This document shows positions 50,701 to 64,000 of a DNA stretch of 64,000 nucleotides, in pieces. Source of the DNA: Escherichia coli (lineage in GTDB: Bacteria > Pseudomonadota > Gammaproteobacteria > Enterobacterales > Enterobacteriaceae); NCBI RefSeq assembly GCF_003790525.1, contig NZ_CP033635.1. One strand, given 5' to 3'. Every line of letters starts with the position of its first letter. The stretch's first letter is position 1. The position numbers were made by a program.

Positions 50701-53700
50701 AAAAACGCATGCGAAACGCTTCTGCCATTTTCCCAATTTTATGCATTTGGTTGTTATCTCGAGCCAGTTTATGAGGTTCAGGTTTCAGAATGGCAATGAG
50801 CAACCATGCTTGCTCATCAAACGCACCCTGACAATATACCAAATGCGCTTCGTCATTCGTTCTGCTGAATTGGCGCAACTGTGGCGGAAATGGATTATTC
50901 ACATTTGCCAGATGAATATGAGCAACTCGCTCAAATTTGATTAATGGCCAGGTAAACGAGTCGTCGTAGGAGTGCATCGCGACCAAATATATCTGGCAAA
51001 ACACCGTCACGCTTATAGGAAATAAAATCCGCCGTTAACGCATCAAGTTCCTCTGCTGTAAGTTGCAGGCGAATAAGTTTTGTTTTGAATACCCGCATCC
51101 TTATTCCTTAAAGTCATTGAAATCATCATCCGTCATATCATTAAGATATTGTTCAGCGCGGCGTGTAATTTCCTCTAATCTTGCGGCACTCGGACGGAAG
51201 CGCGCCTTAACCAGTTTTTTCTCCTCTTGTTCAGCAAGCATGTCCATTAACGCTTCAAATGCGCTGGCACTTAAGAGATATCCTGCGGGGCGATTATTAG
51301 AAAGAACCGCAACCGGTTGATCAATAAAGTATTTAGCTGGGTTTTTACGTAACTCAGTGATATTGACCGATTTTTCAGCGAGAATTCGATGCATACAGTG
51401 ATCCCCTCATAATAATGCACATCAGAATATACATAATAGTATACATCATAATCCCAGCACCAGTTGTCTTTCCATTTGAGGGTCAAGTAACGTCACATGC
51501 AGCCCCACCAGACGCACACCGCGCCCGCCGCGACGTTCATCCCAGGTTTTACGCGCGGTGGCGATTAGATCAGCTTTATTCAGCCGCGGCCAGACGTGCT
51601 CCTGAGTGGTTTGCTGAAAATCATCAAACTTTAATTTCACCCCCTGGCGAGCAATCAGTAAATCAGGTTTTACCTTTGCCAGACGGCGTTCAAGTTCAGG
51701 ATACAGCCGCTCGATAATCGCTTCACATTCAGACCAGTGATGAATATCTTCCGCCATCGTGCGTTCCACGCCGACGGATTTTCGCAACCGTTCACTGTTA
51801 ACGTCGCGCTCGTCAATCCCCTGACTACGCTCCCACAAAATGCGGCCAAATTTGCCAAAACGTTTGAGCAGAGTCACCAGATCACACTTTTGCACATCAC
51901 CGCAGGTCCGCAGCCCCATCGCTTCCAGTTTTGCCGCCGAGACTTTGCCGACGCCGGGAATTTTTGCCAGCGGTAAGGTTTGCAGAAATGCCGGAACTTC
52001 TGCCGGAGTAATCACAAACTGACCGTTGGGTTTATTCATGTCGGAAGCAATTTTGGCGAGAAACTTTACCGGCGCAACGCCCGCAGATGCCGTCAGTTGC
52101 AGCTCGTTAAAGATCGTCTGACGGATTTCCTTGGCGATGAGGGTCGCAGAACCGTGGCAATGCACACTATCGGTGACGTCGAGATAGGCTTCATCCAGTG
52201 ATAACGGTTCAATGCGCGAGGTATAGCGCGAGAAAATTTCGCGGATATGATTTGAGGCTTCTTTGTAGGCGTCAAAGCGCCCCGGAAGCAAGGTGAGATG
52301 TGGGCATAATTTGAGTGCCATCCCTGTCGGCATAGCGCTGCGTACGCCAAATTTACGCGCGGGATAATTGGCGGTGCTGATCACCCCCCGACGTTCGCGG
52401 CTGCCGCCAATAGCAATAGGGATATCGCGCAGGGCGGGATTGTCGCGCATCTCCACCGCTGCGAAAAAGCAGTCCATATCCACATGAATGATTTTACGCA
52501 TTGCTCACCTCTCAACACTGGTAAAGTATACAGTGATTTCAGGGTTTGAGAAATGCGTAAAGATTCAGCATTTAACGCGTTCGCTGTGAAAGCACCTGCT
52601 GCTTATCCAGCTTTTGCACCAGCGGCTGCACCACTTTATCCCCATGCTGACCAAAGTATTGATACAGCGTATCGGACGCGCTTTTAGTCAGCACCATAAT
52701 CTCAATGCGCCGGTTGCCCGCGCTTTGCGGATTTTTCGCGTCCAGCAGCATCTGGTCCGCCATTGCGCTCACCTGCATCACTTTATCTTCCGGCATTCCT
52801 GCCTCTTCCAGCACCCGACGAGCCGAAAGCGCGCGGTCACCCGAAAGGTTCCAGTTGTTGTAGATATTGTTTTTGTAGGCCATCGCATCGGTATGCCCGG
52901 TAATAATAATTTTGTTATCGAGCGAGTCGAACACTGGCGCGAGCTCCACCAGCAGCGTTTTAAAGAACGGCATAATCTGCGCGCTGCCACGTTCGAACAT
53001 ATTGCGATTCTGGTCGTCTTTAATCAGCACGCGTAATCCCTGCGGGACAATCTCCATCTCCAGATTCGCTTCCATATGCGCATCACGGGCAATGGTGTTG
53101 ATACTGGTTGCCAGCTCACCAAGCTCGGTGGCGGATTTCTTCTTCAGCAGCGCCGTTTTCTCGTTGACGTCGCGCGCTTTTTTCTCCGTCTCTTCCGGCA
53201 CTGCCACGGTGGCAGGTTTTGACGGATGAGACGGGCTGATTTTATTTAACGGCGACAGCCCGCCACCGTTAAAAATCGACTGCCCGTGTAGCGCGGCGAT
53301 AATGCTTTCACGCTCGGATTTACTGACGCTGTTGACAATCCACAGCGTCATAAACAGCGCCATCATTGCCAAAGTAAAATCGGCGAACGCCACCTTCCAC
53401 GCCCCGCCGTGGTGCCCGGCATGATTCTTTTTGATCTGCCGCCGGACGATGGTGGTTTTTGCCCCACGCTCGCGGCGGTTGCCCGTCTTTCTCATGCTTA
53501 TTCTTGCTCCAGCATCGCATTCACCCACGCGTCGAGGTTGGCGAACGTCGGTTTGGACGCCAGATGCAGCAACTTACGCCCGGCGTCCACCGCCAACAGC
53601 GTCGGTTTGCCGCCCGCCTGGGCCACCAGCACGGTACGCACACACTCCAGCAGCGAATGTTCCGCCCGCGCCTGCTGTTCCATGGCGTTGGCGAGCGGGT

Positions 53701-62700: not shown

Positions 62701-64000
62701 CGTTGATGGTACCGCCAAACACGTAATGCCCGTCTTCGTCCTGATAATTGAGCGCCGCCACCATCGATTCGGTGAGCGACTGAATATCCTGCCCGAGGCT
62801 TGCGAGCGAATCAGCGGTATTGGTGCCGTTCGCCGCTTCCAGCAGGTCGTCGCGCACCGCCAGCAGGCTGTTGTTGACGCCATCGAGAATCGACTCCTGC
62901 TGGCTTAACCCCGCCGACGCAGAGTCAATATTGCTTTGATACTGCTCAATCGCCGACTGCTGGCGGTTCAACTGGGTGATACGCGTGGCGGCGATCGGGT
63001 CATCCGACGGCTGCAAAATTTCCTTGCCGGTTGCCATCTGCTCGACCACATGCGCCAGAGAGCCGGAGAGATTATTAAAACTTTGCGTCATCGAGACGTA
63101 GGTTTGTTGGGTGGTTACTCGCATTTTCGCGCTCCCGCTTAGCTGCACATTTCCAGCACCGAATCGAAAATCTCGGCCCCGGCGGAAATGACTTTCAGAT
63201 TAGCTTCATAAATTTGTTGATAGGTGATCAGGTTCACCGCTTCTTCGTCCATGCTGACGCCGCTGACGCTGCTCTGCTGGTTTTGCGCCTCAGAATAAAC
63301 ATTGGACGCGGCATCGACTTCCGTCTGGTTTTGCTGGCTGTAAATGCCGATGTTGCTGATGATCGACGAGCACGCCTGCCCGACCGTCACGCTGCCAAGG
63401 TTGGCTATCTCCAGCGGTTCGGTGGAGATGTTGATCAGCGCCTGAAGGTTGTCGCTGTTACCGCTTTCATCCGGCGAACTGGAGAACGCCAGCTCATCGG
63501 CGGTGATATCCGGGTTAACGGTCAGCGGGCCATCGGCGTTGCTGGCGTCATAAATAAACAGCGGCTCGCCGGGGTTACCGTTGAGATCGTAGCCCTGCGC
63601 CAGCTGGTTGTTGACCGCATCGGCAAACTGCAACGCCATGCTGTTGATGGTGTCGGTCAGCGGCGTCAGCACGTCGTTTTGATAATCAAACAGTGCGCCT
63701 AATGAACCGCCGGTGTCGGTAGTCATCGTCGAGGTGGTGCCAGCGAAAGTCAGCGACATGGTCGGCGTGCCATCGGCGTTGGTTTCCAGCGCGATGGTCG
63801 AGCTTTGCTGCCCGCTCACCAGCGGTTGACCGTTTTTCAGGGTGACGTTGTAGTTGCCCTGGTCGTCGATATTGACCTGCACATCCATCATCCCGCTCAG
63901 TTCTTCCACCATCTGATCGCGGGCGTCGTACAGCGCGGAGGCGTTATCGCCGTTGGCTTCGGCCTGGGCGATTTGCTGGTTATAGCTGGCGATGCCGCTG

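Follow-up and report, generated by a model that had tools for sequence, protein, structure and literature searches.

Does E. coli ever use Flag-2, a 39-kb machine of about 40 genes? The question is raised by a 64,000-nucleotide stretch of E. coli DNA (hereafter the window) whose last part, positions 52572-64000, is almost certainly the distal, dinB-side third of the Flag-2 locus: cluster 3 (lafWZABCDEFSTU) and the preceding lfgKL of a lateral-type second flagellar system. Identification of the region as Flag-2 rests on its 100% identity to annotated genomes; E. coli SMS-3-5 shares the sequence of the window in full and is collinear with it, at both ends (NC_010498.1 283042-347041, reverse strand). 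The find itself is correct but ordinary, since about one E. coli genome in four has the locus intact. It adds nothing new, because Flag-2 of E. coli 042 was described in 2005 (Ren, Beatson, Parkhill and Pallen, J Bacteriol 187:1430, as cited in PMC6993521 and PMC2808357), RefSeq already labels lafA and lafU, and some 23% of complete genomes carry the locus: 1269 of 5426 complete E. coli genomes contain at least 80% of the region, and 1259 contain the proximal 25 kb. The literature considered here (PMC6993521, PMC2808357, PMC3032704, PMC4578781) includes a survey dated 2020.

The dinB-side end of Flag-2

The minus strand of 52572-64000 carries lafU, lafT, lafS, lafF, lafE, lafD, lafC, lafB, lafA, lafW, lfgL and the 3' part of lfgK, and the plus strand carries the regulator gene lafZ (Table 1). 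No reading frame is interrupted by an internal stop, and within lafB-lafU the genes are separated by -4 to 22 bp; the initial description of the region as uninterrupted, tightly packed and wholly on the minus strand is upheld except for the orientation of lafZ. Its stator, FliA-like, FliL-, FliK-, FliS- and FliD-like, flagellin and FlgL/FlgK-like genes are real and lie where it placed them, with NCBIfam and Pfam matches. Three genes went unmentioned there: lafZ, lafW and lafD. We use "intact" of this cluster to mean intact reading frames, a term that carries no statement on function.

The site is the known chromosomal site of Flag-2. At the lafU end a gap of 70 bp, which holds the known SOS box, separates the stop codon of lafU from dinB (51446-52501), in agreement with the adjacency first noted; at the other end, in SMS-3-5, lfhA lies next to rayT (yafM). 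The markers of enterobacterial Flag-2, lafK, lafW and lafZ, are absent from Flag-1 and have served as probes (PMC6993521). The window has two of them, lafW and lafZ, and lafK, with its sigma-54 interaction domain, is found past the edge in SMS-3-5.

The remainder of the cluster had been predicted to lie beyond the window edge, and in SMS-3-5 it does, running 28 kb further to lfhA for 39 kb in all, with no pseudogene flagged. All 41 core genes are annotated intact there, including lfgC, whose conceptual translation is unbroken; clusters 1 and 2 (lfhAB, lfiRQPNM, lafK, lfiEFGHIJ, lfgNMABCDEFGHIJKL), which lie outside the window, likewise bear no pseudogene flag. The window holds the C-terminal 286 of 458 lfgK codons, in a frame open to the edge, and SMS-3-5 has the gene at its full length of 1377 bp. 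Truncation downstream is therefore not what is found, because SMS-3-5, identical to the window, carries the whole cluster.

The comparison with 042 that the initial annotation had proposed shows a gene-for-gene match. Cluster 3 follows lfgKL complete and unbroken, at the same dinB-ended site and in the same order (lfgK-lfgL-lafW-lafZ-lafA-lafB-lafC-lafD-lafE-lafF-lafS-lafT-lafU), with collinear sequence that is 95-96% identical in nucleotides and 95-100% in protein; gene lengths are equal except for one codon in lafS. The LafA proteins are identical (WP_000949083.1 in 042), lafW is 95.7% and lafZ 97.2% identical. The differences are few. Between lafW and lafZ (VR2) 042 has a RelE/ParE toxin gene and an HTH antitoxin gene, whereas the window has a REP only; lfgC of 042 is frameshifted by a 2-bp insertion, whereas that of SMS-3-5 is whole; and in the first variable region (lfiJ-lfgN, past the edge) SMS-3-5 has two more hypothetical genes than 042.

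K-12 had been said to retain only a lafU remnant at this place. It does keep the 3' 772 bp of lafU (window 52572-53343), but also a 1.7-kb lfhA remnant to which this is fused, so that both ends of Flag-2 survive; in blastn alignments the two homology blocks overlap by 6 bp at the junction.

Table 1. Features of the dinB-side end of Flag-2 (window coordinates; bit scores are followed by the curated cut-off of the model)
Feature	Position	Strand	Description
lafU	52572-53495	-	MotB-like stator subunit, 307 aa; NF005273 LafU equivalog, 579.7 bits (383); RefSeq lafU
K-12 Flag-2 deletion junction	53338-53343		Inside lafU; blastn of K-12 against window and SMS-3-5
lafT	53498-54361	-	MotA-like proton-type stator subunit, 287 aa; TIGR03818 MotA1, 374.7 bits (303.8)
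lafS	54374-55093	-	FliA/WhiG-family sigma-28 factor, 239 aa; NF009091, 447.5 bits (339)
lafF	55113-55580	-	FliL-like basal-body-associated protein, 155 aa; Pfam FliL PF03748, E 3.2e-10
lafE	55588-56649	-	FliK-like hook-length control protein, 353 aa; Pfam Flg_hook PF02120, E 8.6e-17, residues 240-321
lafD	56646-56957	-	Small helical protein, 103 aa; holds fliT position of primary system
lafC	56962-57354	-	FliS-like flagellin export chaperone, 130 aa; TIGR00208, 77 bits (53.75)
lafB	57377-58693	-	FliD-like filament cap, 438 aa; NF005955, E 1.4e-45, under curated cut-off
Sigma-54 promoter, predicted	58726-58740	-	TGGCAC-GCCTT-TTGC, 32 nt upstream of lafB start codon
Hairpin	58828-58853	-	Perfect 11-bp G+C-rich, 3' of lafA
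REP	58856-58889	-	Between lafA and lafB; exact GCCGGATGCGGCG match, palindromic partner sequence beside it
lafA	58899-59813	-	Lateral flagellin, 304 aa, monocistronic; NF033376 lat_flg_LafA_1, 667.3 bits (440)
LafS (sigma-28-type) promoter of lafA, candidate	59859-59885	-	TTAAGTTT-N11-GTCGTTTT; GTCGTTTT element at 59859-59866
lafZ	60300-61142	+	ToxR/CadC-like membrane-anchored winged-helix regulator, 281 aa
REP	61157-61194	+	Between convergent 3' ends of lafZ and lafW; VR2 site
lafW	61201-62178	-	Flag-2-specific protein, 325 aa; disordered N-terminus, predicted flagellin/FlgL-like fold
lfgL	62195-63124	-	FlgL-like hook-filament junction protein, 309 aa; TIGR02550, 196 bits (127.2)
lfgK	63139-64000	-	FlgK-like hook-associated protein; TIGR02492, 200.2 bits (170.75)

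Motor, filament and junction proteins

We took the curated NCBIfam cut-offs as the criterion for family membership; LafA, LafU, LafS, LafT, LafC, LfgL and LfgK pass. The stator pair is of the proton type. LafT scores 21 bits with the model of the sodium stator protein PomA and is 36% identical to K-12 MotA; LafU, which has the conserved Asp (WKVAFADF) in a transmembrane segment and whose C-terminal domain is of the OmpA-like peptidoglycan-binding type, reaches 223.9 bits with the MotB model, under its cut-off of 277, and is 32% identical to K-12 MotB. LafS is 37% identical to K-12 FliA. LafF matches the NCBIfam FliL models under their cut-offs, and the C-terminus of LafE also matches a YscP-like domain. 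The close-packed lafBCDEFSTU unit begins with the gene for LafB, a protein with 30% identity to K-12 FliD. LafD owes its name to gene position (PMC6993521): NCBIfam, Pfam and PDB sequence searches returned no match to it, and comparison with K-12 FliT no significant similarity. The NF033376 match spans the full length of LafA, residues 1-304.

LafW belongs to a narrow family, and Pfam, NCBIfam and PDB sequence searches with it gave nothing significant. Its AlphaFold model (pLDDT 82.4) retrieved flagellins as all top ten Foldseek hits in the PDB, the best with E 2.9e-7, and LafW is thus predicted from its modelled fold to be a flagellin-like protein. Profile-profile alignments with LafA and LfgL were non-significant, the segment aligned being the conserved flagellin N-terminal helix motif. 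In distant loci, too, lafW directly follows flgL.

LafZ consists of an N-terminal OmpR-type winged helix (Pfam Trans_reg_C, E 3.6e-13, residues 25-97), a single membrane-spanning segment and a C-terminal portion in the periplasm, with a weak CadC match. Its gene is divergent from lafA across a 486-bp gap, in an A+T-rich stretch (1-kb G+C of about 40-42% over 59500-60999), and has the same orientation in distant loci.

Promoters and the surroundings of lafA

Across the 64 kb of the window, the sigma-54 consensus is matched perfectly by the site upstream of lafB and by no other. SMS-3-5 has another such perfect site in front of lfgB, sigma-54 sites upstream of these same two genes have been reported in strain PCN033 (PMC4578781), and a distant Flag-2 locus has a one-mismatch site in the same place as that of lafB. 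Sites containing TTTAC, read by eye, were also considered as sigma-54 promoters and dismissed because of their poor match to the consensus.

When the region in front of lafA was searched for the FliA consensus of E. coli (TAAAGTTT-N11-GCCGATAA), no site was convincing or matched at more than 11/16, and a canonical sigma-28 promoter was rejected. A relaxed sigma-28-like motif, defined post hoc from few sequences, is confined, over 48 kb of SMS-3-5, to the upstream regions of lfgM, lfgK and lafA (shuffle mean 0.1) and, in a distant locus, to those of flgK and the two lafA copies. Its occurrence at 59859-59885 suggests a LafS promoter of lafA, with a putative -10 element, G-Y-C-G-Y-T-T-T, that departs from the FliA consensus GCCGATAA. 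The Shine-Dalgarno sequence of lafA, AAGGAG, is 7 nt upstream of its ATG.

The hairpin beyond lafA is likely to form the 3' end of the lafA transcript. RNA folding of 58800-58905 gives -57.1 kcal/mol (z = -6.15), and in distant loci the corresponding spot 3' of lafA is occupied by clear intrinsic terminators. A scan for the generic terminator consensus overlooked this hairpin and did no better than chance, with 17 sites compared with 13.8 in shuffles; Rfam at gathering thresholds found no RNA family in 50000-64000. The two REP elements that had been described as flanking the flagellin gene are real, but they bracket the lafA-lafZ pair rather than lafA alone, since one sits between lafA and lafB and the other between lafZ and lafW; directly upstream of lafA there is no REP.

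These sites suggest an order of expression. LafK, the sigma-54 activator whose gene lies past the window edge, would fire the sigma-54 promoters 5' of lfgB and lafB; the lafB-lafU transcript would supply LafS; and a sigma-28-like promoter would then let LafS-RNA polymerase read the late genes, namely lafA, lfgKL-lafW and lfgMN. Such an order would fit the two-step sigma-54 to sigma-28 logic of the laf systems of Vibrio, Aeromonas and Plesiomonas, traced here through sequence matches alone.

The laf systems of Vibrio parahaemolyticus, Aeromonas hydrophila and Plesiomonas shigelloides have in common with Flag-2 a separate gene set, a short LafA, LafK, a LafS of their own and a proton-type LafT/LafU (PMC6993521, PMC4481668). 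In these three systems lateral flagella for swarming are proven by experiment, whereas E. coli Flag-2 is known here from its genes; by analogy with them, Flag-2 would be expressed, assembled into flagella and put to use in motility. V. parahaemolyticus requires MotY, and Aeromonas requires Maf-5. No homologue of either was reported in Flag-2 of E. coli W and Crooks (PMC3032704), and neither motY nor maf-5 is among the annotated genes of the SMS-3-5 cluster. With Flag-1 of E. coli (fliC, fliD, fliS, fliA, motAB, flgKL) Flag-2 shares protein families and the overall parts list, but its flagellin is shorter (LafA 304 aa, FliC 498 aa), a sigma-54 activator takes the place of FlhDC as master regulator and, unlike those of Flag-1, its genes form a single contiguous locus.

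Working system, relic or export device

Compared with 042, the 11 genes together give a dN/dS of 0.060, the neighbouring dinB giving 0.027, and lafA differs at 26 synonymous and 0 non-synonymous positions. These genes are under purifying selection, which argues from the sequences that E. coli uses Flag-2, or did until recently. With every core gene whole, lfgC included, and a dN/dS of about 0.06, Flag-2 of this lineage may be a working, conditionally expressed second system, a reading that is possible without being probable. Its late promoters, read by LafS, would be insulated from the FliA regulon, with LafW as a third flagellin-like axial component.

It is also possible, though again we would not count it probable, that the cluster is a silent relic whose frames are still intact but which is unexpressed in E. 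coli and is heading for a deletion of the K-12 type. In the ST131 strain EC958, in which lfgC is intact, LafA protein was undetected, and a mutant in fliC showed no motility at either 28 or 37 C (PMC4637896). The absence of the locus from about 77% of complete E. coli genomes, the lfhA'-lafU' deletion scar of K-12, the 2-bp insertion in 042 lfgC and intergenic gaps strewn with REP elements point the same way. However, a dN/dS so near that of dinB and the pattern of differences in lafA are not expected of neutrally drifting DNA, 41 of 41 core genes are intact in SMS-3-5, and the promoter elements are shared with a distant locus.

That the apparatus is assembled mainly as a device for protein export or adhesion, as De Maayer and colleagues have speculated for enterobacterial Flag-2, seems to us very improbable. 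Variable-region cargo genes of some Flag-2 loci do encode putative secreted effectors (PMC6993521), and it was not possible to ascribe the swarming seen in E. coli W and Crooks to Flag-2, tests with strain W being inconclusive (PMC3032704). The cluster nevertheless encodes a full stator (LafT, and LafU with its conserved Asp), a FliL-like protein, flagellin and a cap, and these count against such a role because motor and propeller parts are unneeded for export alone; moreover, the VR2 site of this strain holds a REP and no cargo gene. The notion that the genes belong to the primary (Flag-1) or a polar-type system, or arose from such genes by recent duplication, draws on the sharing of general families (MotA, FliA, FliS, FlgK, FlgL) and is refuted: the window proteins are just 30-37% identical to K-12 FliC, FliD, FliS, FliA, MotA and MotB, LafA and LafU pass lateral-specific NCBIfam models whereas the FliC/FljB, MotB and FliA models stay under their cut-offs, the PomA score is 21 bits, and lafW and lafZ, absent from Flag-1 (PMC6993521), are present. 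Published phylogenies, together with the curated models, settle the polar-versus-lateral question.

If Flag-2 is a working system, the two flagellar regulons of one cell would stay insulated from each other, because the putative LafS -10 element differs from the FliA consensus. The unbroken copy described here suits an expression experiment, for which the promoter motifs and the predicted fold of LafW offer concrete points to test.

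Gene content and lateral identity

The observation of an intact Flag-2 end beside dinB is confirmed, and its interpretation as Flag-2 is supported with minor corrections. None of the genes from lafU to lfgK, lafZ included, contains an internal stop; the lfgK frame stays open up to base 63999, and spacing from lafB to lafU ranges from a 4-bp overlap up to 22-bp gaps. The initial annotation of uninterrupted, tightly packed minus-strand genes adjacent to dinB therefore stands, except that lafZ lies on the plus strand. LafD matched no family or solved structure in NCBIfam, Pfam and PDB sequence searches and lacks significant similarity to K-12 FliT; its assignment as FliT counterpart is by position alone.

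Features of the dinB-side end of Flag-2 and its surroundings (window coordinates unless stated; L001, SMS-3-5 locus; L010, distant Flag-2 locus)
Feature	Position	Strand	Assignment or remark
tRNA-Thr island	about 28471-40402		adjacent to tRNA-Thr; with integrase
RtcB-family RNA ligase gene, prfH	48296-50046	-	intact, overlapping; prfH, release factor H
yafO	about 50698-51097	-	toxin gene, frameshifted per RefSeq annotation
yafN	51101-51394		antitoxin gene, intact
dinB	51446-52501		70 bp from lafU
dinB SOS box	52516-52535	-	CACTGTATACTTTACCAGTG; in 70-bp gap past lafU stop codon
lafU	52572-53495	-	NCBIfam LafU, 579.7 bits (cut-off 383)
lafT	53498-54361	-	NCBIfam MotA, 374.7 bits (303.8)
lafS	54374-55093	-	NCBIfam FliA family, 447.5 bits (339)
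lafF	55113-55580	-	Pfam FliL, E 3.2e-10
lafE	55588-56649	-	Pfam FliK C-terminal domain, E 8.6e-17
lafD	56646-56957	-	103 aa; position equivalent to fliT of primary system
lafC	56962-57354	-	NCBIfam FliS, 77 bits (53.75)
lafB	57377-58693	-	FliD match under curated cut-off, E 1.4e-45
sigma-54 site	58726-58740		TGGCACGCCTTTTGC; 32 nt 5' of lafB
canonical REP	58856-58889	-	between lafA and lafB
lafA	58899-59813	-	NCBIfam lateral flagellin LafA, 667.3 bits (440)
sigma-28-like motif	59859-59885	-	TTAAGTTT-N11-GTCGTTTT, read 59885-59859; lafA leader
lafZ	60300-61142	+	Pfam OmpR-type winged helix at N-terminus, E 3.6e-13
canonical REP	61157-61194	+	between convergent ends of lafZ and lafW
lafW	61201-62178	-	no Pfam or NCBIfam family found
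lfgL	62195-63124	-	NCBIfam FlgL, 196 bits (127.2)
lfgK	63139 to past window edge	-	NCBIfam FlgK, 200.2 bits (170.75)
sigma-28-like motif	L001 24776-24804	-
sigma-28-like motif	L001 32468-32495	+
sigma-28-like motif	L010 4646, 9796, 9884, 10964
REP array, lfgJ-lfgK gap	L001 32107-32527		about 5 tandem REPs

That these might be polar or primary flagellar genes is contradicted by the evidence: LafA and LafU score above the cut-offs of lateral-specific NCBIfam models, identity between Laf proteins and K-12 MotB, MotA, FliA, FliC, FliD and FliS is 30-37%, and the window holds both lafW and lafZ, marker genes missing from the primary system (PMC6993521). The FliC/FljB, MotB and FliA models gave scores under their own cut-offs, and the sodium-stator PomA model reached only 21 bits.

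Three sites in the window fit the REP pattern, where 0.45 would be expected; the two exact ones are those tabulated. They are real, but rather than flanking the flagellin gene, as first described, they lie on either side of lafA and lafZ taken together, and no REP falls in the 486 bp that separate these genes (1-kb G+C about 40-42%). In SMS-3-5, REPs lie in several further Flag-2 intergenic gaps. The lfgJ-lfgK gap, just past the window edge and filled there by the tandem REP array, is 420 bp as against only 175 bp in E. coli strain 042, and rayT, a REP-associated transposase gene, adjoins the locus at its other end.

Beside dinB, in the dinB-yafN-yafO-yafP operon, yafO has an internal stop in 042 too. 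At the RtcB-prfH site K-12 has pseudogene fragments only (ykfJ, prfH). The tRNA-Thr island carries a three-gene operon, encoding an alpha/beta hydrolase, a response regulator and a hypothetical protein of 1091 aa, together with an IS3, an antirestriction gene, a YeeU/CbtA toxin-antitoxin pair and a JAB/RadC-like gene oddly named 'lfgB' by RefSeq.

Extent, conservation and prevalence of the cluster

Positions 52400-64000 are 100% identical over their full length to E. coli SMS-3-5 (NC_010498.1 283042-294642, reverse strand), and also to at least 15 other complete genomes; positions 1-25000 are 100% identical to NC_010498.1 322042-347041. Because both window ends match SMS-3-5 exactly, 64,000 bases apart, the window belongs to that genome or to a clone-mate, for instance KFu014, and the contig could be extended through SMS-3-5. 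The remainder of the cluster, expected beyond the edge, is present there: it runs for another 28 kb, first through lfgJ to lfgB in descending order and on to lfgA, lfgM and lfgN, next through a variable region of five genes, with a large glycosyltransferase among them, and finally through lfiJ to lfiE, lafK, lfiM, lfiN, lfiP, lfiQ, lfiR, lfhB and lfhA, ending beside rayT. No truncation was found; the SMS-3-5 annotation flags no pseudogene inside the cluster, and lfgC translates cleanly.

The 042 locus aligns in two blocks (94.9% and 96.1% identity), with a single break between lafW and lafZ, where 042 carries genes for a RelE/ParE toxin and an HTH antitoxin and the window has about 60 bp holding a REP; this gap is the second variable region of De Maayer and colleagues (PMC6993521). 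Gene lengths are those of the 042 counterparts save for lafS, one codon apart. The 2-bp insertion near codon 16 of 042 lfgC, a known frameshift, is absent from SMS-3-5. In K-12 an lfhA pseudogene abuts the lafU pseudogene: homology to the window ends at 53343, within lafU, and the two blocks of homology share 6 bp, which leaves about 36.8 kb missing. The K-12 remnant initially described was thus correct for the lafU end, but left out that of lfhA.

At a coverage of at least 80%, the proximal 25 kb is found in 1259 and the distal 11.6 kb in 1269 of 5426 complete E. coli genomes, a prevalence of 23% that agrees with the published 20-24% (PMC6993521, PMC4578781). This is a known and common feature, and RefSeq annotates it.

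Across the eleven complete genes, the window and 042 differ by 337.5 synonymous and 75.5 non-synonymous changes (dN/dS 0.060); lafA shows 26 and 0, and the housekeeping neighbour dinB has a dN/dS of 0.027. Purifying selection has kept the Flag-2 genes since the two lineages diverged; this is evidence against a relic that died long ago. We found no open paper showing production of Flag-2 flagella by E. coli. No LafA could be detected in ST131 strain EC958, and its fliC mutant lacked motility (PMC4637896); strains W and Crooks swarm, but this was not attributable to Flag-2 (PMC3032704), and a 2024 paper still describes the function as not fully understood (PMC11420993). As cited in the latter paper, Flag-2-encoded lateral flagella are seemingly essential for swarming in Plesiomonas (Merino 2015), and the genes are expressed in Yersinia enterocolitica, maximally at 20 C (Bresolin 2008).

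LafW, a predicted flagellin-like protein

A search for LafW relatives among 1.84 billion representative proteins gave only 89, mostly of 325-350 aa. In the contexts examined, genes of relatives as distant as 23% identity immediately follow flgL, and lafZ and lafA come further along. In the AlphaFold model of LafW (mean pLDDT 82.4, 52 sequences used) the first 50 residues are disordered, the terminal helices are long and an alpha/beta domain lies in the centre. Flagellins take all of the top ten places in a Foldseek comparison with the PDB (best E 2.9e-7, probability 1.00), with FlgL structures ranked below them; given the low TM-scores of about 0.27, the match is one of local fold and topology, not a rigid overall fit. 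The family profile also weakly matches flagellin C-termini. Fold and profile lend support to the earlier naming of LafW as a 'putative hook-associated protein' (PMC6993521). LafW looks like a third, Flag-2-specific flagellin/FlgL-like axial protein, so that three genes of the flagellin superfamily lie in the window.

Promoters and proposed regulation

The site upstream of lafB is the sole perfect sigma-54 match within the 64 kb; the SMS-3-5 locus has one other, upstream of lfgB, and strain PCN033 has sigma-54 sites at the same two places (PMC4578781). At the position equivalent to the lafB site, the distant locus L010 (LafW 34% identical) has TGGCATGCTTATTGC.

Downstream of lafA, a perfect 11-bp G+C-rich hairpin follows the REP (fold of the region -57.1 kcal/mol, z = -6.15); with the clear terminators at this place in distant loci, it makes lafA look monocistronic. 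The 70-bp lafU-dinB gap shows no terminator-like hairpin, either in a consensus terminator scan or in the sequence itself, so lafB-lafU transcripts could run on into dinB.

Scanning upstream of lafA with the E. coli FliA consensus gave no good match. The lafA leader does carry the sigma-28-like motif tabulated above. Similar elements stand upstream of lfgM and of lfgK in SMS-3-5; in L010 they are found ahead of flgK and of each of the two lafA copies. The pattern, TTAAnTTT-N11-13-G/C-Y-C-G-Y-T-T-T, occurs only upstream of lafA, lfgK and lfgM, and a relaxed form has no further matches in 48 kb of SMS-3-5 or 15 kb of L010 (shuffle means 0.1 and 0.03), though it was built after the fact and only the two lfgK/flgK matches lie outside its first source sequences. 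From its sequence it may be a LafS promoter. In the order we propose, LafK with sigma-54 would activate two operons, those of lfgB and lafB; the lafB operon would supply LafS, and LafS would then transcribe lafA, lfgKL-lafW and lfgMN; such an order would mirror the classical flagellar cascade and the lateral systems of Vibrio and Aeromonas. The -10 element of the candidate LafS promoter departs from the FliA consensus GCCGATAA, a difference that may hold the two flagellar regulons separate.
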